The notes under the pieces: model-generated
What the model was told of the DNA's origin: nothing
The model's database searches: none
What the model saw: only the letters and a program-made list of their open reading frames with translations
Shown: positions 2,644 to 36,518 of the stretch, piece after piece
Layout: every line of letters starts with the position of its first letter
How positions within the stretch are numbered: the first letter of the stretch is position 1
Made by a program: the position numbers and the translations under genes
IMG/VR virus record: IMGVR_UViG_3300013383_000009
Coordinates: 1 to 42,748 of that record
Direction: 5' to 3' (one strand)
Length of the DNA: 42,748 bases
Source: a virus

Positions 2644-3237
2644 ATGGAGAAATCGTTGCAGGACACTTGTCGGGACGCAAAACTGGAACAGCACATCACG
2701 GCGCAGGAGATAGCAGACCAATCCGGTGTGCCTTTGTCCAGCGTCAACAACTTTTTCGCATCCACATCTAAAGCACCGGGCGTGTATGCGGCTGGCCCCA
2801 TCTGCAAGGTGCTGGGGGTGTCTATGGACCGTTACTTTGGCATTGTAGAGGTTGTTTTGGCGCAAGACCAAATCAAGCAGCTCCAGCAAGTCCATGACGA
2901 GGATGTGCGCCTTGCACGGATAGAGGGCGCATACGATGAGCTGTCCAAATCAGCAGAGGAGCAGAAGAAAAAAGCAAGGCGGCAGCGCACGATGCTGTAT
3001 ATCGCATCGCTGCTGTCCGCTATTCTGCTGGGTATAGTTACATGGTATGTGGCGCTTGATTACCGTGTGCAGGACGAAGGCCTGATCCGATCTAAGACAA
3101 CCGGAACGATTGCATGGATTGTCATTGCGCTTTTGGCGGTGGGTATCGGCGTACTTACATCCGTGCTATTGTCCACTCTTGCGGCGGACAAAAAATCCAA
3201 ACAAGGCGAGGAAGCAGAAAATGAGCAACTGCATTAA
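2644..3237 (+). CDS. Membrane-anchored HTH protein (N-terminal XRE-like HTH, coiled coil, two C-terminal TM helices)
   Basis: HTH ITAQEIADQSGVPLSSVNNFF. Hydrophobic segments MLYIASLLSAILLGIVTWYVAL and IAWIVIALLAVGIGVLTSVLLSTL. Overlaps the integrase start by 17 nt. Confidence 0.75.
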   Translation: MEKSLQDTCRDAKLEQHITAQEIADQSGVPLSSVNNFFASTSKAPGVYAAGPICKVLGVSMDRYFGIVEVVLAQDQIKQLQQVHDEDVRLARIEGAYDELSKSAEEQKKKARRQRTMLYIASLLSAILLGIVTWYVALDYRVQDEGLIRSKTTGTIAWIVIALLAVGIGVLTSVLLSTLAADKKSKQGEEAENEQLH

Positions 3238-4315
3238 ATGCGGAACAGCTCTTGTCCCGGGCGCTGTATATTGCCATCTCTGTGGCAAAAAACAGGTAAC
3301 AGAGCGGCGCAAGGCATTGAAGCGGGCAAACGGCACCGGAACTGTATACAAACTGGCTGGGCGTAGAAAATCGCCTTGGGTGGCCGCAAAAAACAAAGTG
3401 ATTATCGGGCATTATGAGCGCAAAACGGACGCTCTGGACGCTTTGGAGCGGTTGAACGGCAAGAGTTTAACGGAGCGGTATAATATGACCTTTGCGGAAG
3501 TCTTTGATGCTTGGAAAGAGGAGCATTACAAAGAGATCGGCAAGCAGGGGATAGAATCATATAACAACGCCTACCGCATATTTACGCCGTTGCACGGGAA
3601 AAAGTTTCGTGATCTCCGCACCGCAGACTTTCAGGCCGTACTTGACCCACACATGACCAAGAGCCATTCCACCGTGAACAAGTACAAGCAGCTCATAACG
3701 CAGATGTCGAACTGGGCAATCCGGGAGGAAATCTGCACAACAAATTTTGCAAAGTTTGTCCGGCTGCCGGAGAATGTCAAAAAAGAAAAGGACATCTTCA
3801 CGGAGGAAGATATCCGAAAATTGGAATCCGACAACAGCGATGCGGCGAAAATTGTCTTGATGCTGCTGGCAACGGGTATGCGTATTGGAGAGCTGTTTTT
3901 TTTGCCGCTGGCAGACTATCACGGCGATTATGTGATCGGCGGTGAAAAGACCGAAGCCGGACGAAACCGAATTATCCCCGTTCGCCAGGAGGGGAAAAAA
4001 TACTTTGCCTACTTTGCGAAGCGAGCAACGGGGGAGCTGCTGTTATCCGGCTACGATGGGCAAAAAGTCCCAGCAAACTTCCGCAGGCGTGATTTTTACC
4101 CACTCCTTGACCGGCTGGGCATAGAGCGCAAGACCCCACACGCCACACGCCACACATACGCATCCCGGGCGGTAAAAGAGGGATTGCCCCCGGAAATGCT
4201 GCAAAAAATACTCGGACACGCCGATTATTCCACCACCGCAAACATATATACACACATCGACGCGCAGACACTTGTGGATGCTGTTACTAACACGTTACTA
4301 ACAAATAAGAAATAA
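3221..4315 (+). CDS. int: Tyrosine integrase with N-terminal zinc-ribbon
   Basis: ATG at 3221 after GAGGAAG. N-terminal CIKCG...CHLCG. C-terminal HATRHTYAS...LGHADYSTTANIYTH gives the R..HxxR..Y catalytic signature. Confidence 0.92.
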   Translation: MSNCIKCGTALVPGAVYCHLCGKKQVTERRKALKRANGTGTVYKLAGRRKSPWVAAKNKVIIGHYERKTDALDALERLNGKSLTERYNMTFAEVFDAWKEEHYKEIGKQGIESYNNAYRIFTPLHGKKFRDLRTADFQAVLDPHMTKSHSTVNKYKQLITQMSNWAIREEICTTNFAKFVRLPENVKKEKDIFTEEDIRKLESDNSDAAKIVLMLLATGMRIGELFFLPLADYHGDYVIGGEKTEAGRNRIIPVRQEGKKYFAYFAKRATGELLLSGYDGQKVPANFRRRDFYPLLDRLGIERKTPHATRHTYASRAVKEGLPPEMLQKILGHADYSTTANIYTHIDAQTLVDAVTNTLLTNKK

Positions 4316-26427: not shown

Positions 26428-26484
26428 ATAACCCCCAGCAAACAAAAATGCCGCAAGATACATTTCTGTACCTTACGGCATAAT

Positions 26485-26551
26485 CGCGAGCGCACGGAAT
26501 CGAACCGTGACTTCCTCAATCAAGGTGTGCGACCATTACACCACCACTCGC
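26485..26551 (-). ncRNA. tRNA-like element B (67 nt): canonical acceptor, D and T arms with a truncated anticodon arm
   Basis: Minus-sense GCGAGTG GT GGTG-TAATGGTCG-CACA ... CACGG TTCGATT CCGTG CGCTCGC G. Only 16 nt (c CCT TGATTG AGG aagt) lie between the D and T arms, against 22-23 in a canonical tRNA. No CCA is encoded. Confidence 0.5.
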
Positions 26552-26555
26552 TGAC

Positions 26556-26623
26556 AATAAGCGCCCGGATTCGAACCGGAGTTTCCGTTGGCTCGGCGTT
26601 TTCCCCCTAAACTACGGCTTATT
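26556..26623 (-). ncRNA. tRNA-like element A (68 nt): acceptor, D and T arms with a truncated anticodon arm
   Basis: Minus-sense (A)ATAAGCC GTA GTTT-AGGGGGA-AAAC g CCG AGCCAA CGG aaac TCCGG TTCGAAT CCGGG CGCTTAT T. Same 3-bp/6-nt mini-hairpin layout as element B. Its 5' end overlaps the stop codon of the upstream gene. Confidence 0.45.
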
Positions 26624-28880: not shown

Positions 28881-30115
28881 GCAATAACTCCCATTCTGCG
28901 GCTGACAGGCTCTAACGCATATCTCGTCGCGTCAATCAGGTGGTTGTTCGCGTCAGGGTAGCCGCTAATAATGTCGCCGTCTTTGCTTCTTTCGTATTCG
29001 TACCCCACAAATTCATCATAAGCATGTGGGGTTCTCTTCCTGTCTATTACGATTGTGCGCCGCTGCAGAAATTTCATACCATATTCCACGGACCCGGGGC
29101 CCTTTACCGCCTCAAGTGCCGGAAGTCCCATCGCGCGGAAGTCTGCCACGCTCTTAGGCTCTGCACTATCGCAAATAGTTCGCACGTTTTTATATCCTCG
29201 CTGCTTGATTATTGTCGCGCTTTGCTCATTGGATAGTTTGTTTTGGTAAATTTCATCCAGCAAGTAAATGGTTTCGCGCGCCCGGTCGTAGTGCAGCCGG
29301 ATAAAAGCAAACGGATCGGGAAACCACCCAAAGTCAACGCCCTGGTAAATCTTATCGAATCTTTTAAATTCGTCATCCGTGATTTCCCGCAGTTCCAGCT
29401 TGTCGAACACATTGCCGCCCGTACCCACAGGAATGCCTAAATACTCATGCTGGTACGCTCTCTCGTCCGTGGCCTTGAGATGTTCCGCTTCCGCTAAAAA
29501 CTGCTCACCCAGCCACTCTGGCGGGGCTTGCAAGTATGTTGACTTGTGGCACAGCCTGTCTGTGCGTTCTTCTAGGCTGTCCTTGTTCGCCCAGTTATCG
29601 CGGCTTATCGGCGGGTTGTAGCTTTCAAAGTTCCAATACTTCGAGCCACCGCGCATGGTCGATTGCAAAATCGTTCGTATCTCGGCACGACCGGCAAACT
29701 GGTCTTTTTCTTCAAAGTGTGTCACGGCAATGTAGCCAAACGGCACCTTGATAGACTTGATCTTCATGGGATCGTCAGCACCCCGAAACATGATTTTCTG
29801 CCCGGTAGGCTTGTAGATTAGCTCCATCGGGGAAACCTTTGCTTCCCAATACGCCGCCATACCCAACTCACCGATTGCCCAGATATACTGTGCGTACACG
29901 CTATCGCGGATGGTGTTTGCCACCTTTCGCAGCACGAGCGCGTGTGTCCCCGGATTGTTTATCAGCAGCAGGGGGACAAGTACAGACACAGTGGAGGACT
30001 TCAGTGAGCCGCGCCCGCCACTAAAATCGTAGTGCGTATGCCTGTGGTAAAACACATCGTGAGCCACATCGTAAAAAGCCGAGCCGATTTTTTCTGACAA
30101 GAGAATATCAGACAT
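28877..30115 (-). CDS. terL: Terminase large subunit (PBSX / Terminase_3-like)
   Basis: ATG at 30115. Walker-A-like GGRGSLKSS near the N-terminus, followed by a C-terminal nuclease-type region. Confidence 0.92.
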   Translation of the reverse strand: MSDILLSEKIGSAFYDVAHDVFYHRHTHYDFSGGRGSLKSSTVSVLVPLLLINNPGTHALVLRKVANTIRDSVYAQYIWAIGELGMAAYWEAKVSPMELIYKPTGQKIMFRGADDPMKIKSIKVPFGYIAVTHFEEKDQFAGRAEIRTILQSTMRGGSKYWNFESYNPPISRDNWANKDSLEERTDRLCHKSTYLQAPPEWLGEQFLAEAEHLKATDERAYQHEYLGIPVGTGGNVFDKLELREITDDEFKRFDKIYQGVDFGWFPDPFAFIRLHYDRARETIYLLDEIYQNKLSNEQSATIIKQRGYKNVRTICDSAEPKSVADFRAMGLPALEAVKGPGSVEYGMKFLQRRTIVIDRKRTPHAYDEFVGYEYERSKDGDIISGYPDANNHLIDATRYALEPVSRRMGVIA

Positions 30116-30521
30116 CAATAACCACCTTGACGGAATCCGTGCTTATTTTTGTCTCGCTCACTTCACGCCAACCGAAATTGCATCCAAGCGAGAATTTCGC
30201 GCCGTTCGCACCATCTTTGTCGTAGAGCCGAGATTCGGCGTATTCTTCGCATCTGGACTTTGCGCGCGTAACCGTGTCCGCAAACTCCGGTCTCCCCTGA
30301 TAATCAATCAGCGCCTGCCGCCCTGTGAACCCAAGCGACAACGCCAGCCCCGTTACCGTCGGCGGCTTTGCGTTGATGATGATCGGCACGCCGTATTTAT
30401 CCCGTACAGCGCAGCCGTCATCACCGATAAAGGGTTTTCCTTCGCACTCTTTGAAATAAGCGTCAATGGCGTCTTGCATCGCCTTTACGCTTTTCCATTT
30501 TCTTGGCGCTCCGCCAGCCAT
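30108..30521 (-). CDS. terS: Terminase small subunit
   Basis: ATG (MAGGAPRKWKSVKAMQDAIDAYF...) after AAGGAAG. PPTVTGLALSLGF is an HTH typical of TerS. The track's N-terminal extension is unsupported. Confidence 0.8.
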   Translation of the reverse strand: MAGGAPRKWKSVKAMQDAIDAYFKECEGKPFIGDDGCAVRDKYGVPIIINAKPPTVTGLALSLGFTGRQALIDYQGRPEFADTVTRAKSRCEEYAESRLYDKDGANGAKFSLGCNFGWREVSETKISTDSVKVVIDV

Positions 30522-30726
30522 GCGCTCACTTCCTTTCGTTTTGCTACCAGCCCCCACCCCTTGGCTACAGTAACAGTCTTTCCCCGCCCATGCGGCCTTC
30601 TGGAAGCTCTCAAACATGGGTTACACAGTCTGCCCGCAGAGGGGCAATGTCTTTTTTGCCGCTCACTTTTGAGCGCTGATTTTGTAAGTTTACTTTCGCC
30701 AGCGAATTTTCGTTGATGACTTATCC

Positions 30727-31383
30727 CTACGCAGACAGACGCTTTGTGTTTGTCTGCATAATGAACTCTTTTACTTGGTCATATCCCCATCCGCAGTCTA
30801 CAAGACCGCTCACAAGGCGTTCCATAGACTGCACAGCAGACAGTTCATCGGAAGAAAAGCAATCACGCGGATTTCCTTTTTTATCAAGGCCGTATTCCTC
30901 CCGCAGTTGTTTTGCGTCCTTGCCAAATAACGCCTTGTAAATACAGTTCGTATAGACGGAATATGCGTGCCCGTGCATACGGTCATTTTCTGCGGACTGT
31001 TGCAGTGCTTTTGTCAGAGCGTGCCTTACCGCTACGCCTTTTTCTCTTTCGATCAGTTTCCCGCGCAACGCAGCTTCCATCGCATTAAACTGCTTTATGT
31101 ACGCTTCCTTAAATTTCATGGCGAGTTCTCCGGTATAACCCATTGCAAGAATGGTAAATCCGTCCCTCGTCATAATATACATGGGCAGCTTTTTGCCTTG
31201 TACGGTATCGTAAGAGGAAGGCCCAAAATTGGACTGTCGAAAATCGTCGCTACAGCCCAATTCGCGTATGTCTCTCAAAATGTGCTTGTGTTCTTTGCCA
31301 AATGTCTCAGCAACATCAAGGCTTGTGCATACCGCGCGGTCTTCTTTCCCAACTTTCATAATTTCTACCAGCATTTTTATCAA
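30727..31383 (-). CDS. Rha-family phage regulatory protein
   Basis: SLDVAETFGKEHKHILRDIREL...MTRDGFTILAMGYTG matches the Rha (Phage_pRha) N-terminal pattern. Confidence 0.85.
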   Translation of the reverse strand: MIKMLVEIMKVGKEDRAVCTSLDVAETFGKEHKHILRDIRELGCSDDFRQSNFGPSSYDTVQGKKLPMYIMTRDGFTILAMGYTGELAMKFKEAYIKQFNAMEAALRGKLIEREKGVAVRHALTKALQQSAENDRMHGHAYSVYTNCIYKALFGKDAKQLREEYGLDKKGNPRDCFSSDELSAVQSMERLVSGLVDCGWGYDQVKEFIMQTNTKRLSA

Positions 31384-31389
31384 TCCTTT

Positions 31390-32073
31390 CCTGTTGATTT
31401 TTGGTAAGCAGACTATTTAGGACGCATCCCTTGTAGCGGTCTGCCAGCGCATATCCGCACTTTCGGGCAGGCGCTATGCCATTTGCCCACGGCAGCGGTT
31501 CTCCGCTTTTGGAGCGGCGCTGCGGTCCTGCCCCGCTTTAGCACTTCAGGGAAAGTCCCCGTCACTCGCTGTGGTCTCCCCTTACGGGGCACCTGCGCCA
31601 CATATTGGTCGTCTTCCCGCTTAGATTGTCACACGCTACCGGCAAATACGCTTCGAAAAGTCGTATCCCCTATTCCGTCTGGTCAAACCGGTCTTGACGC
31701 ATCAAGACAAGCGCAGTTTTCAGCGAGCATTGTCATTTCCATGTGAGCCACGACGAACGGTCTCACAGTGTCCGGGCGCTACCCGGCCTCTTGTGCAAGC
31801 GGCTGGACTCGAACCAGCGACCAATGGAATTCAATCGCATATCCATTTGCGCGATAAAGCTCTACCGACTGAGCTACGCCTGCATATAACAACAGCCCAT
31901 AGGTTTCCCTACAGGCTGTTTGTGCCGGTATGACCTTTCGGTGCCAGAAGGTGCGCCCATTACCGACGGCGCATATAGTATCGAAAGGAGGAGAGATGAA
32001 AGCTACATGGTGTAGCCGGGGTGGATGTCTTGGCTTTTGCCCAATCATCCACTATACACATTTTACCACATCA
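31390..32073 (-). ncRNA. Candidate large structured non-coding RNA (class unresolved; GOLLD/ROOL-like context)
   Basis: No credible CDS in 684 nt. An extended -10 (TGgTAAAAT, plus 32060-32068) sits at the 5' side. Many minus-sense hairpins carry GAAA, GUAA or UGCG loops. A tRNA-like module is embedded. Confidence 0.5.
31794..31883 (-). tRNA. tRNA-like module, 90 nt, with a non-canonical 40-nt D-to-T region (identity unresolved)
   Basis: Minus-sense GCAGGCG TA GCTC AGTCGGTA GAGC ...40 nt... GCTGG TTCGAGT CCAGC CGCTTGC A. The best anticodon arm is ATGCG-AUUGAAU-TCCAT (one C.C mismatch, anticodon UGA), preceded by a 17-nt insertion. Alternative helices ATCGC/GCGAT and AATGGA/TCCATT interleave. 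No CCA is encoded. Confidence 0.55.
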
Positions 32074-32538
32074 TTAAGTGGAATTTGTGCCATCTTTTGC
32101 GTAAAGGCCGCTATATTTGGCCACATCCATCAAAAATTGCTCTTTCCTCCGGCTAAATGTCCTCTCGCTGATCCCCGGAATCACGATCTTGTTGCGAGAG
32201 TATTTGTGCTTGCCCTGGCAGTTGCGCATGATGCCATATATCAGTTGCCGCCGGATCGTCTCGCTGCTAATATCTCTGCCGCAGCGGTCTATAGCGTATT
32301 CCACCGCCAGCATCTTCTGCGTCTCTGGCCAGTGCTCTATGGCGGCCAGTTGCTCCGCCTTGCTCTCGGCGGGTCTGCCAGCGCCTTGTCCACTTGGCAT
32401 GCCCTCCGTGGCTCTATGCGTTCCGTCGAGGATTTCCGCCCGGGCCTCGCGATATGCCCGCACCCGGCGCGGGTATCCTCTCACATAAGCAATGCACTCC
32501 AACCGCACATCATAAGGCAGCGTCGCCTTTTTGCTCAT
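32074..32538 (-). CDS. Putative late-gene transcriptional activator (RinA/ArpU-like)
   Basis: 154 aa upstream of the packaging module. IAYVRGYPRRVRAYREARAEIL plus a C-terminal HTH-like ISERTFSRRKEQFL. The call rests on position and pattern. Confidence 0.6.
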   Translation of the reverse strand: MSKKATLPYDVRLECIAYVRGYPRRVRAYREARAEILDGTHRATEGMPSGQGAGRPAESKAEQLAAIEHWPETQKMLAVEYAIDRCGRDISSETIRRQLIYGIMRNCQGKHKYSRNKIVIPGISERTFSRRKEQFLMDVAKYSGLYAKDGTNST

Positions 32539-32548
32539 TTGCCCTCCT

Positions 32549-32842
32549 TTACTCCGCGCTGTTTACCAGCTTATATTCGCCCCGCAGGGCCTTTTCGATG
32601 TCCGCCATCTTGATATATCCGTTGTTTTTTGCCTCCACCAGCTCCACAAGGCATTGCTGTAGGTATTCCAAGCTCCGGGCGTCGTGCTCGTCCGCCGTCT
32701 CCTCCCTCACATGGAATCCGCACTTGTCCAGCAGCACGCAGGACACATTGTCCATGCATTGTTTGGTTCCATCCAGGCGGCCCAGCTCATAGGCTTTGGC
32801 CGGATTATTGGGCACCGGTCTGCCGTTGGTTCGCTTGAGCAT
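32549..32842 (-). CDS. Hypothetical protein
   Basis: ATG (MLKRTNGRPVPNN...) 6 nt after AGAGGTG. Confidence 0.65.
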   Translation of the reverse strand: MLKRTNGRPVPNNPAKAYELGRLDGTKQCMDNVSCVLLDKCGFHVREETADEHDARSLEYLQQCLVELVEAKNNGYIKMADIEKALRGEYKLVNSAE

Positions 32843-32972
32843 CACTGTCACCTCTTTCCTCAAATCTGCACACGCCGGGGGTGTCCGCCACAGGGCAGAA
32901 GTCTGCACACATCGGGCAGTCAGCGTTGACGCAGACTTCATCCTGCATCCACTTGCAGTTAAGCATCGGCAT
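32805..32972 (-). CDS. Small Cys-rich protein (55 aa)
   Basis: Translation: MPMLNCKWMQDEVCVNADCPMCADFCPVADTPGVCRFEE.... Overlaps both neighbours. No clear RBS. Confidence 0.35.
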   Translation of the reverse strand: MPMLNCKWMQDEVCVNADCPMCADFCPVADTPGVCRFEERGDSDAQANQRQTGAQ

Positions 32973-33255
32973 CAACAGCCTTTCTCGCGCTGGAGCTACA
33001 AAAATCGTGCCCCCAAGCATCATGCTTGTGCAGCTTACACCAGCTCCATTTCTCAGCTTCGTTTTCCCCGCTTGACCAATATGCGCAATCACGGCAATGC
33101 ACCACGCGCACAGCGTCCACAACAGTAGGCTCTTTGTCGATCACCGCGCCCAGCAACTTTAACACTAAAGTATAGCCGGTTTCTTTTTTGGCTTTGCCCG
33201 TTTCGTCAAGCAATCCCGCCTTAAAAGCATCCGCATCAATCAGTCGCATTGTCAT
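32959..33255 (-). CDS. Hypothetical protein
   Basis: 98 aa, ATGA-coupled to the upstream gene. Contains CRDCAYW...C...H...C. Confidence 0.65.
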   Translation of the reverse strand: MTMRLIDADAFKAGLLDETGKAKKETGYTLVLKLLGAVIDKEPTVVDAVRVVHCRDCAYWSSGENEAEKWSWCKLHKHDAWGHDFCSSSARKAVDADA

Positions 33256-33503
33256 ACATCCTCCAACATTTCTTTGATTTTTTCGGCGTTTGCCCTAATA
33301 ATATCCATTACCACATCGCTTTGAATGTGGTGTGCAAACACCGCCTTGTCTGTCGCATCAGCATTGTAATACCCAGTGAATGTCTCCCCATCCGGTGATG
33401 TTGCCGCGATACACAGGCATGCCGGCTTAAAATCGGTGATAACCTTCAGCGATTCCTCCAGCCATGCCGCATACGGCTGCTTTGTGATGTCTTCCATCTC
33501 CAC
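33252..33503 (-). CDS. Hypothetical protein
   Basis: 83 aa, tightly packed in the operon. Confidence 0.65.
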   Translation of the reverse strand: MEMEDITKQPYAAWLEESLKVITDFKPACLCIAATSPDGETFTGYYNADATDKAVFAHHIQSDVVMDIIRANAEKIKEMLEDV

Positions 33504-35104: not shown

Positions 35105-35382
35105 GGCGCCCCTCTTTTCCCGCGTTGGCCGCTCAAGATGTCTGCAGCCGCCCGCAAGTCGTCCGGCATCCCAACGGGGCATGTAAAAGCGTTTTCGTCT
35201 CCCCACTTGGCATATTCCAGCAGGATGCGTGCGATTTGACCCGCGTCACGCTCTCGCACGGTGTCATCGTTTATGTAGTGCTTACATTTTTCGTCGCGCA
35301 CCAAAAATCCCCCCGTGCAATATGTCCCGCAAATATCCTCGCGCATCCTTGCATACCAGCAAGTCGTACACGGCGCACTCAT
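35101..35382 (-). CDS. Small Cys-rich protein
   Basis: ATGA overlap with the PP-loop gene. Begins MSAPCTTCWYARMREDICGTYCTGG. Confidence 0.65.
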   Translation of the reverse strand: MSAPCTTCWYARMREDICGTYCTGGFLVRDEKCKHYINDDTVRERDAGQIARILLEYAKWGDENAFTCPVGMPDDLRAAADILSGQRGKRGAP

Positions 35383-36518
35383 CCTTTCCCCTCCTCCAGC
35401 AAATCCACCTGCCCATCAAACTCTATCGAGTTTTTTGCTTCCGTCTTCTTTTTCTCCGCGCCTTCTTTTTTTCGGTGCTCCTTGTATTCGTTGTATTTTT
35501 GGCGGTAAATGTAAGATTTCCCAAAGATGCTCCACGCGGCCTTCACAACGTTAGGTTCATACGGTCGAATCAGCTCCAGGTCATCCACGGCCTTGTAGGA
35601 GATGGGGCAGCCGCAGCAGCCGGTACGAGTCAAGCCGTAGACCTCGTATGCGTCAGAGTATCGCACGCCGTAGAACTCTTTGTACCACGCCTTATCTGCA
35701 TCCGAGACGTAGTACAGAGGCCGAAGCCGGTACTGTCCGGTGCTAGTTTCTGTAAAGCAGAGTGATGTATTGTCCTTTCGAGGCACGGATCGCATGCCTC
35801 CCTCGTCCCGACGTTCGCCGGTGATAATCATGTCAAAGTCCTTTTGCACCCGGTGGGCCACCTGCTTTTTGCAGTAGTCGCAGCATTTTGCGCTGATTGG
35901 GAAGTCGGGAGGATACTCACCAATAAAGTCACGCATATACTTGCTGGAATTTATGACCAGCTGGATATTGGGGCGCGGCTCACCTGCCGAGTTACAGCAG
36001 CACAAGAAATTCAATACGCTTTCGCATTTTGGATAGCGTTCCCGCAACTCCTGCCGCTTCGCCTGTTTATCTTCCGCCGCGTCGTATTCTTCGGCCACCG
36101 ACAGGGGGACGCCCTTTTTTTGCCATTCGGACAGACCGGCGGACATGATTTTTGATACAAATGGGATCCCATACTTCCTGGATGCGGTGACGATGCTCAC
36201 CTTGGGCCTGTACTCTGTGATCTCCACGCCGTATTTCTCCGCCGCAGCCTTCACATGATCCTTTGTGGCCTTCATTTCCAGCCCCGTATTAAAAAAGGCG
36301 TATTTTACCGGTGGCAGATTGAAAATCTTACGGGTGCGCTCGATCAGGTCCAGCAAAATATCGCTGTCCGCGCCGCCCGAGTAGGAGCATATCGCGCTTG
36401 GATGCTGCGTCAGATGTTTGGCGATAATGCTTTCAATAGCCTGGAACTTTGCCGGGGCATCAAAATCCGCATAAGGCGGTCTGTCGGTGTATACCCGGCT
36501 TTTGTATGTATCTTTCAC
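35379..36518 (-). CDS. PP-loop ATP pyrophosphatase / PAPS-reductase-family protein with Cys-rich C-terminal half
   Basis: SYSGGADSDILLDL is an SGGxDS PP-loop. Cys clusters CCCNSAG, CCDYCKK and RTGCCGCP. Confidence 0.85.
   Translation of the reverse strand: MKDTYKSRVYTDRPPYADFDAPAKFQAIESIIAKHLTQHPSAICSYSGGADSDILLDLIERTRKIFNLPPVKYAFFNTGLEMKATKDHVKAAAEKYGVEITEYRPKVSIVTASRKYGIPFVSKIMSAGLSEWQKKGVPLSVAEEYDAAEDKQAKRQELRERYPKCESVLNFLCCCNSAGEPRPNIQLVINSSKYMRDFIGEYPPDFPISAKCCDYCKKQVAHRVQKDFDMIITGERRDEGGMRSVPRKDNTSLCFTETSTGQYRLRPLYYVSDADKAWYKEFYGVRYSDAYEVYGLTRTGCCGCPISYKAVDDLELIRPYEPNVVKAAWSIFGKSYIYRQKYNEYKEHRKKEGAEKKKTEAKNSIEFDGQVDLLEEGKG

Follow-up and report, generated by a model that had tools for sequence, protein, structure and literature searches.

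The 42,748-nucleotide (nt) stretch of DNA analysed here (IMG/VR record IMGVR_UViG_3300013383_000009, positions 1 to 42,748, hereafter called the window) is a complete 42,748-bp virus genome with direct terminal repeats at its ends. At 31794-31883 on the minus strand it carries a small gene with the acceptor stem, D arm and T arm of a transfer RNA (tRNA), in which the anticodon arm is replaced by a 36-nt domain made of an 11-nt linker, a 5-bp stem and a 15-nt loop. The comparison with its relatives suggests that this module is a stand-alone, tRNA-processed and non-decoding tRNA mimic, and we give this reading a probability of roughly 0.6. A preceding sequence-only reading had suggested that the module may be an unusual phage tRNA or a tRNA mimic, which is borne out in that it is a conserved, non-canonical gene with a clear tRNA match and ~68 copies.

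A tRNA scaffold with a replaced anticodon arm

All canonical parts that had been listed at first sight, i.e. the acceptor stem, U8-A9, the D arm and the T arm, are indeed present, but they lie on the minus strand, with the 5' end at 31883 and the discriminator at 31794. Module position i corresponds to window coordinate 31884 - i. The parts, with the evidence on which each assignment is based, are:

31794..31883, minus strand: complete tRNA-like module of 90 nt, discriminator A (31794) included (Rfam tRNA, ARAGORN, covariance model R1, ~68 homologous copies)
31877..31883, minus strand: 5' strand of the acceptor stem, positions 1-7, partner 31795-31801 (positions 83-89) (pairing in 21 distinct sequences)
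31859..31874, minus strand: D arm GCUC-AGUCGGUA-GAGC, positions 10-25, with G18 and G19; as DNA GCTC-AGTCGGTA-GAGC (stem invariant)
31848..31858, minus strand: 11-nt linker from the D stem to the central helix, positions 26-36; 1 nt in tRNAs
31843..31847, minus strand: 5' strand AAUGG of helix S2, positions 37-41, in the place of the anticodon stem; partner CCAUU at 31823-31827 (positions 57-61) (covariation, folding energy)
31828..31842, minus strand: 15-nt 'anticodon' loop AUAUGCGAUUGAAUN, positions 42-56, with GCGAU (3' strand of helix S1, 31834-31838) and an invariant UUGAAU inside
31819..31822, minus strand: variable loop GGUC, positions 62-65 (read from the sequence)
31802..31818, minus strand: T arm GCUGG-UUCGAGU-CCAGC, positions 66-82 (stem invariant; loop position 59 alone varies, as G, C or A)
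31791..31793, minus strand: CAA instead of the relatives' usual CCA, with the downstream block A1 fused directly (comparison of downstream contexts)

In the window, the acceptor stem reads GCAGGCG/CGCTTGC with a single G.U pair and is followed by U8-A9 at 31876-31875. The core nucleotides of the tRNA fold are intact and conserved (U8, A14, G15 with C48, G18, G19, U54, U55, C56 and A58). C65 of the variable loop is the partner of G15 (Levitt pair), and G63, in the G46 position, is the only base of this loop that varies, namely in two copies, while the sole change of the D arm among relatives is U20 to C in its loop. The linker begins with UUU, continues with AUCGC (the 5' strand of S1, 31851-31855) and ends with the variable segment L1 at positions 34-36 (GCA, ACG, GUG or GCG), so its part UUUAUCGC is unchanged among relatives. 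The 40 nt that had been counted between the D and T arms are confirmed.

Annotation programs recognize the scaffold and stumble over the centre. The Rfam tRNA model RF00005 scores 46.5 bits on the module (gathering score 29, E = 6e-7), but it aligns end to end only with a 34-nt local insertion that stands in for the 17-nt anticodon arm. ARAGORN calls a 91-nt 'tRNA-Ala(cgc)' at 31793-31883, irrespective of intron search, in a fold with two G.U pairs in the anticodon stem, a G at the place of U33 and an unpaired 23-nt 'variable loop'; it makes no call of a transfer-messenger RNA (tmRNA). The covariance model R1 gives 112.7 bits. No Rfam family besides tRNA was found in window positions 29500-33500 at E <= 10, including GOLLD, ROOL, SpF41 and group I introns.

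Covariation supports a displaced stem with a large loop

Pattern scans with the centre left free returned 55 copies (22 distinct) from viral and human-gut metagenome contigs, and 13 further copies from a later scan bring the total to ~68. A pattern scan of the GTDB representative genomes found no copy, and a covariance model search of 41 loci yielded no further members with the centre of the module. In close relatives the module is neither absent nor degenerate, and it is conserved. Covariation was analysed in an alignment of 21 distinct module sequences (alignment A1). Its acceptor stem is paired in 98.6% of cells and shows compensatory changes at 3:87 (AU 13, GC 7) and 6:84, and the D and T stems are invariant.

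For the centre, a mismatched arm AUGCG/UCCAU with the anticodon UGA and two perfect helices, ATCGC/GCGAT and AATGGA/TCCATT, had been noted from the sequence, and all of them are present. As to which of them covaries in homologous phages, the answer is AAUGG/CCAUU: the helix 37-41/57-61 is paired in 99% of cases, exchanges U-A for G-C at 39:59 (GC 14, UA 6, other 1) and is the only central helix with a compensatory change. It improves the folding energy over the cloverleaf by -3.3 to -5.6 kcal/mol, and the helix 29-33/46-50 does so by -5.0 kcal/mol. The UGA arm (44-48/56-60), which had been regarded as the best conventional anticodon arm, does not hold, as it is paired in 47.6% across the relatives, its G48.U56 pair occurs in the window alone, and it adds no folding energy; the UGA arm and the ARAGORN arm are energetically neutral or destabilising.

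Neither is the module a canonical type II tRNA, i.e. a tRNA with a long variable arm, whose detection by ARAGORN would have overturned the unusual fold. The ARAGORN stem 26-30/38-42 is broken at 29:39 in 15 of the 21 sequences, the would-be variable stem is paired in 47.6%, and the 'anticodon' changes among near-identical relatives from Ala(cgc) to Val(cac), Thr(cgt) or Ser(cga), because the triplet falls on the variable positions 33-37.

The supported 5-bp stem resembles an anticodon stem in that its 3' strand ends just before the variable loop GGUC. However, it starts 10 nt too far 3', with a linker of 11 nt instead of 1 nt before it, and it closes a loop of 15 nt instead of 7 nt. No version of the fold contains a 7-nt anticodon loop, and no anticodon is conserved; a decoding tRNA would be expected to have a 5-bp stem directly after position 26, closing a loop of 7 nt in which U33 is present and base 37 is a purine, and no such stem exists. 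Among the central positions only 34-36, 39, 56 and 59 vary, of which 56 is the single variable position of the 15-nt loop. The other 30, including UUUAUCGC and AUAUGCGAUUGAAU, are unchanged, also in the 13 later copies.

A plausible pseudoknot in the anticodon domain

The AUCGC of the linker (29-33) is perfectly complementary to the GCGAU of the loop (46-50), and this helix S1 is 100% paired, with both strands invariant in ~68 copies. As S1 is invariant, covariation cannot test a pseudoknot, and in three scans with the centre or S1 unconstrained, AUCGC/GCGAU came back unchanged every time, with no S1 variants. Five or more Watson-Crick pairs between an 11-nt linker and a 15-nt loop arise in ~8% of shuffles, and the S1 match alone is thus not significant. 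Together, S1 and S2 would have H-type order with loops of 3, 4 and 6 nt, lengths that we infer to be sterically feasible. With S1 perfect and invariant, a pseudoknot in the anticodon domain is plausible.

As an alternative or addition to the pseudoknot, U43-A44-U45 can pair with A54-U55-R56 in 20 of the 21 sequences (43:56 is UG in 13, UA in 7 and UU in one, the window), which would lengthen the stem past a bulged A42 and leave the 8-nt apical loop GCGAUUGA. In the window, U56 pairs with A42 instead, which results in the 6-bp version AATGGA/TCCATT. An outward extension by 34:64 and 35:63 keeps its pairing via one-sided transitions; we regard it as unproven and did not adopt it, because it would consume the variable loop including the core positions G46 and C48.

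The module is an independent cassette

In the 40-nt flanks of the copies, four different sequence contexts were distinguished upstream and at least eight downstream, and the junctions coincide with the tRNA 5' end on one side and directly follow N73-CCA on the other. Most copies encode N73-CCA-A, whatever comes next, whereas in the subgroup of the window N73-CA is fused directly to block A1 and one C is lost. The first impression that no CCA is encoded is thus correct for the window and its subgroup (CAA) but not for most relatives, which encode CCA after the discriminator. The neighbouring units are arranged as follows:

Window: U - module - A1 - A2 - B
L003 and L071: tRNA-Gln - B - A1 - module - tRNA-Trp, the tRNA-Trp directly abutting
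L005: a ~260-nt stretch with tRNA-Trp after the module
L006: different spacers on both sides

These arrangements indicate a mosaic array, composed of tRNA genes and structured RNA blocks, in which the module is a unit of its own. As its flanks are interchangeable and the block order is permuted, it is no fixed domain of one large RNA, and the corresponding suggestion from the sequence-only reading fails on the exact tRNA boundaries, the many contexts and the permuted blocks. The flanking units U, A1, A2 and B (31606-31793 and 31884-31975, minus strand; also in L003, L005, L006 and L071) are conserved and structured, vary in order and, in relatives, are interleaved with true tRNA-Gln and tRNA-Trp genes. 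Block U has a long-range stem and a 13-bp hairpin with a GNRA loop, and block A1 has two hairpins.

It could still be that the module merely marks a processing site or is a domain of a longer non-coding RNA, in which case RNase P and RNase Z would recognise the tRNA shape and cut there, so that the structured blocks beside it or the late mRNA are set free or made stable, with the tRNA-like piece itself left as a by-product. The position in a 690-nt region that is rich in hairpins and free of open reading frames (ORFs), the lack of a sigma-70-like promoter beside the module in our promoter scan, and the conserved, structured flanking blocks would fit this idea. However, with interchangeable flanks in permuted order there is no fixed larger fold that holds the module, no large-RNA family of Rfam (GOLLD, ROOL and others) matches at E <= 10, and punctuation alone leaves the invariant 28-nt centre and the retained CCA unexplained. 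We therefore consider a processing mark improbable.

The distribution of diversity is consistent with constraint on the module. In 50 copies, the nucleotide diversity is 0.068 for the module, 0.153 for the acceptor stem, 0.019 for the D and T arms and 0.000 for the centre minus its six variable sites. At 21 loci with homologous flanks, it is 0.042 for the module, compared to 0.068 for block A1 and 0.090 for block U. A decaying tRNA gene, wrecked in its anticodon arm by insertions and carried along without function in a recently expanded phage clade, would be an explanation for some of these data: the clade is narrow and confined to human-gut contigs, there are no S1 variants and no copy in a GTDB representative, homologous flanks are just 1.6-2.2 times more diverse than the module, and related phages bear other aberrant tRNAs at the same locus. 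In a decaying gene, however, one would not expect compensated stem changes (3:87, 6:84, 39:59), a centre core that, next to a variable acceptor stem and L1, is no less invariant than the D and T arms, or a cassette with exact boundaries that survives repeated recombination into new contexts and keeps its CCA. The compensated stem changes and the retained CCA argue for selection, and decay is in our view very unlikely. In one relative (L012:2312-2401), the segment that comprises the variable loop, the T arm and the 3' part of the acceptor is duplicated in tandem within the module.

A tRNA that does not decode?

If the module is a non-decoding mimic, its gene would give rise to a tRNA-shaped small RNA of ~90-93 nt. 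RNase P would free the 5' end from a longer late-region transcript. Most relatives encode the 3' CCA, and in the subgroup of the window it would be attached once the 3' end is trimmed. Through the intact elbow and core the RNA would adopt the tRNA L-shape, and in the anticodon domain either the GCGAU loop bases would pair with the AUCGC linker in an H-type pseudoknot, or the stem would grow by three pairs. In either fold, the loop could not offer a codon-reading triplet at the correct distance from the CCA end, and for this reason the RNA would not decode. It may instead engage a tRNA-recognising factor by its elbow and acceptor end, with the invariant centre providing specificity. A tRNA-targeting host defence protein, an enzyme that processes tRNAs or acts on their CCA ends, or a T-box leader are candidate partners, all of them hypothetical.

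Several observations weigh against a mimic. An encoded CCA, a 7-bp acceptor stem and an invariant UUGAAU would also be expected of a real, chargeable tRNA, and the U-U-G-A-A therein resembles U32-U33 followed by the Phe anticodon GAA. Helix S1 lacks covariation and has a chance level of ~8% in shuffles, a search for antisense targets found no complement of the apical loop elsewhere in the phage genome, and the module is only moderately more conserved than the neighbouring homologous blocks, which means that recent common ancestry may explain part of its invariance.

Could the module be a tRNA that decodes in spite of a greatly enlarged anticodon loop? Under the 3'-stacking rule, U51 would serve as U33, G52-A53-A54 as a Phe anticodon and a U would be at position 37, while the UGA register would specify Ser; the extra bases would bulge out or base-pair to the linker, which might protect the loop from anticodon nucleases. 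It speaks for such a tRNA that UUGAAU is invariant while the would-be base 38 varies (G, A or U), that most copies encode CCA and occur in true tRNA arrays, and that a genuine host-type tRNA, tRNA-Thr(CGT), has exactly the same D arm. The geometry, however, is difficult to reconcile with decoding. The distance from the anticodon to the CCA end is fixed in tRNAs, and a loop of 15 nt on the supported stem, or of 8 nt after three added pairs, would break it; a 7-nt loop is not available. Position 37 would be a U, which to our knowledge is essentially never seen, and reading of UUY codons normally requires a modified A37. Moreover, we know of no precedent for a decoding tRNA with 10 extra nt between positions 26 and 27, the discriminator is A, G or U among close relatives, and the long ORFs are intact under translation table 11, so that there is no recoding need for a special tRNA. 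Taken together, these points make a decoding tRNA quite improbable.

The variable discriminator is also relevant for charging. Position 73 is an identity element for most synthetases, with the exception of threonine and E. coli glutamate identity, both of which depend on the anticodon (PMC9976931). The module has no G3.U70 pair (Ala), no long variable arm (Ser, Leu) and no G-1 (His), and we see no route by which it would be charged efficiently.

A normal anticodon arm could in principle also be generated by splicing, if a precursor lost ~10 nt behind position 26 together with ~8 nt of the loop (17 nt for the UGA version). Both extra segments are mutually complementary (AUCGC/GCGAU), and other phage contigs in the pattern scans have tRNA-like genes in which the distance from the D to the T arm is ~10-25 nt too long. 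Two separate excisions would be required, though; after any single one, the covarying stem is still not part of a cloverleaf. The sequence offers no bulge-helix-bulge motif, the intron mode of ARAGORN gives no spliced solution, and there is no group I match in Rfam. The host lineage is bacterial, and the only bacterial tRNA introns known to us are group I introns of >200 nt. An RNA ligase, a kinase/phosphatase or a splicing endonuclease did not turn up among the 40 phage proteins scanned. A spliced precursor is thus extremely unlikely.

Other tRNA-shaped RNAs of the same phage

Two further sites of the genome encode tRNA-shaped RNAs:

31601-31510, minus strand: block B, a tRNA-shaped RNA with a CCA tail (consensus fold of 20 distinct homologues by RNAalifold)
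26440-26622, minus strand: a pair of neighbouring elements with tRNA shape, located among head genes (Rfam models)

Block B forms a cloverleaf-like four-way junction with a 7-bp closing stem and five pairs with compensatory changes. Of its three hairpins, one is capped by a GUAA tetraloop, a long one by a CUU loop, and the third has a stem of 4 bp and the 7-nt loop GGCAGGA. As in the module, AUAU precedes the closing stem, and N-CCA-A follows it in all full-length copies; block B has no Rfam match and no tRNA-type D or T loops. The tandem pair at 26440-26622 matches SpF41_sRNA with 44 bits (gathering score 52), overlapped by a mascRNA-like match and a 28.1-bit tRNA match, and a second weak tRNA match (31.2 bits) lies at 26556-26622. 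The anticodon regions are shortened in all of these elements.

The presence of several CCA-tailed, tRNA-shaped, non-decoding RNAs in one 42.7-kb phage suggests a shared purpose. The most far-reaching version would be that the module is one of several phage tRNA mimics, the others being the CCA-tailed cloverleaf of block B and the SpF41-like pair, that its anticodon domain is a pseudoknot, and that it acts as decoy or inhibitor of a host factor that senses tRNAs. In such a scenario, the self-contained pseudoknot would imitate a codon-anticodon duplex or bury the loop, and the RNA would be matured and CCA-tailed like a tRNA but immune to anticodon-reading synthetases and anticodon nucleases. It could then be a high-affinity inhibitor or decoy of a tRNA-targeting defence effector, of an enzyme that modifies CCA ends, or of a T-box leader, and in the last case the uncharged mimic would switch the leader on permanently. 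We regard this scenario as tentative and, on the whole, unlikely.

Comparison with known tRNA-like RNAs

With canonical type-I tRNAs (RF00005), the module shares the 7-bp acceptor stem, U8-A9, the 4-bp D stem with a GG loop, the 5-bp T stem with a UUCGA loop, the short variable loop ending in C48, the N73-CCA of most copies and the occurrence in phage tRNA arrays. It differs by its 11-nt linker (1 nt in tRNAs) and 15-nt loop (7 nt in tRNAs), and by the lack of a conserved anticodon, of a U33/R37 frame and of a conserved discriminator. The SpF41 sRNA (RF02435) is likewise phage-borne and has the shape of a tRNA, in which the T arm is intact and a usable anticodon arm is missing, but the module does not match it at E <= 10, has no homology to it in the centre, retains a perfect D arm, and has an anticodon domain that is enlarged instead of truncated.

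The tRNA-like structures of plant viruses (turnip yellow mosaic virus type) and mascRNA (RF01684) are non-decoding RNAs with a tRNA-like fold for RNase P, RNase Z, the CCA-adding enzyme or synthetases. The plant-virus structures build one arm with a pseudoknot (PMC9976931). In their case, however, the pseudoknot forms the acceptor arm and a real anticodon loop is retained, whereas the module has a canonical acceptor arm and a possible pseudoknot in the anticodon domain; moreover, they constitute the 3' end of an RNA genome, and the module is a gene of a DNA phage. Intron-containing pre-tRNAs of the archaeal bulge-helix-bulge or eukaryotic type also have extra anticodon-loop nucleotides in an otherwise normal cloverleaf, but the module has no bulge-helix-bulge, a second insertion 5' of the stem and a bacterial host. 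Examples of tRNA-Tyr introns from giant viruses turned up in the same pattern scan. The tmRNA and YrlA (a bacterial Y-RNA-like RNA, PMC4201824) mimic the acceptor stem, T arm and elbow without an anticodon and engage tRNA-binding proteins; unlike the module, these mimics are parts of larger RNAs, have reduced D arms and use SmpB and Rsr as partners. To the large phage non-coding RNAs GOLLD and ROOL the module has no family match, and it has no fixed larger fold.

In the full-text literature, we found no description of the module or of a tRNA-like RNA with its anticodon arm replaced in this way. If the centre is a pseudoknot in the place of the anticodon arm, this would be a tRNA-like architecture without a described precedent that we know of or found in the literature. 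Phage tRNAs are known to counter tRNA-cleaving host defences by decoding in the stead of the damaged host tRNA (PMC11555353). A non-decoding mimic would represent a different strategy, i.e. a conserved phage RNA with all the features by which tRNAs are handled that can no longer decode. Such an RNA would hint at a factor, of the host or the phage, that recognises the shape of tRNAs. In automatic annotation the module is concealed by an 'anticodon' that differs from relative to relative (Ala, Val, Thr, Ser). As the module is small, occurs in ~68 gut-phage contigs and is accompanied by at least two more tRNA-shaped RNAs in the genome, it offers a tractable system.

The phage and its genomic setting

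The phage is temperate, with a tyrosine integrase at 3110-4315. Its portal protein has relatives of 96-55% identity in metagenome-assembled genomes and isolates of Clostridia, mostly Oscillospiraceae, Oscillibacter and Muriventricola, and the host group therefore probably belongs to the gut Clostridia of the family Oscillospiraceae. The module is located between a late-regulator-like gene and the Rha and terminase genes, and its neighbours are all on the same strand as each other. Downstream follow a Rha-like regulator (30727-31383), the small and large terminase subunits and the portal, and upstream are small proteins without family match and one peptidase-like protein. A promoter and terminator scan found neither near the module.

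Other roles of the locus were considered and rejected. An attachment or integration site (attP) is not supported, as the integrase is ~28 kb away, host tRNAs share only generic 19-25-nt stretches of the D and T arms, and the 5' half of the module is conserved too. In case of a cos or pac site, the terminal repeats at the record ends are far from the module. A stop-codon suppressor would not be needed, as the long ORFs are uninterrupted under table 11, and the loop frame contains no CUA, UCA or UUA. A protein with a PAPS-reductase/PP-loop domain (Pfam PF01507, 47.7 bits) is encoded at 35379-36518 on the minus strand, near RusA and a C5 DNA methylase; tRNA thiolases belong among the PP-loop enzymes, and no connection of this protein to the tRNA-like RNAs was found.

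Origin of the module and related aberrant genes

The host-type tRNA closest to the 5' half of the module is the Oscillospiraceae tRNA-Thr(CGT), with an identical D arm and the acceptor strand GCUGGUG (module: GCAGGYG), and the module is probably derived from a type-I tRNA with a tRNA-Thr-like scaffold. Related phages have, at the same locus and on the same acceptor/D/T scaffold, other non-standard anticodon regions:

L174 (3523-3678): 77-nt form, loop CCAAUAA with C33, encoded CCA
L188 (2026-2108): 8-nt loop
L009 (2769-2847), L016 and L022: 79-nt form, CCC loop, extra nucleotides
L180 (3839-3909) and L182 (3352-3432): further aberrant tRNA-like genes overlooked by ARAGORN

As the related phages differ in this region on the same scaffold, the anticodon region appears to be the fast-evolving, non-canonical part of a conserved scaffold. 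Aberrant genes upstream of the terminase in related Clostridia phages also include 6-nt and 8-nt loops and a 4-bp stem with an 8-nt loop, and one element of a related phage, which has no GG or UUCG elbow loops, again holds ATCGC...GCGAT. Canonical D and T arms with 38-48 nt between them were also seen in many unrelated phage contigs (L004, L030, L033, L041, L044, L066, L092, L108 and others), a set that is distinct from the eukaryote-type tRNA-Tyr introns of the giant viruses, and these genes may belong to a wider group of phage tRNAs, marked by enlarged anticodon domains, that has so far gone unannotated.

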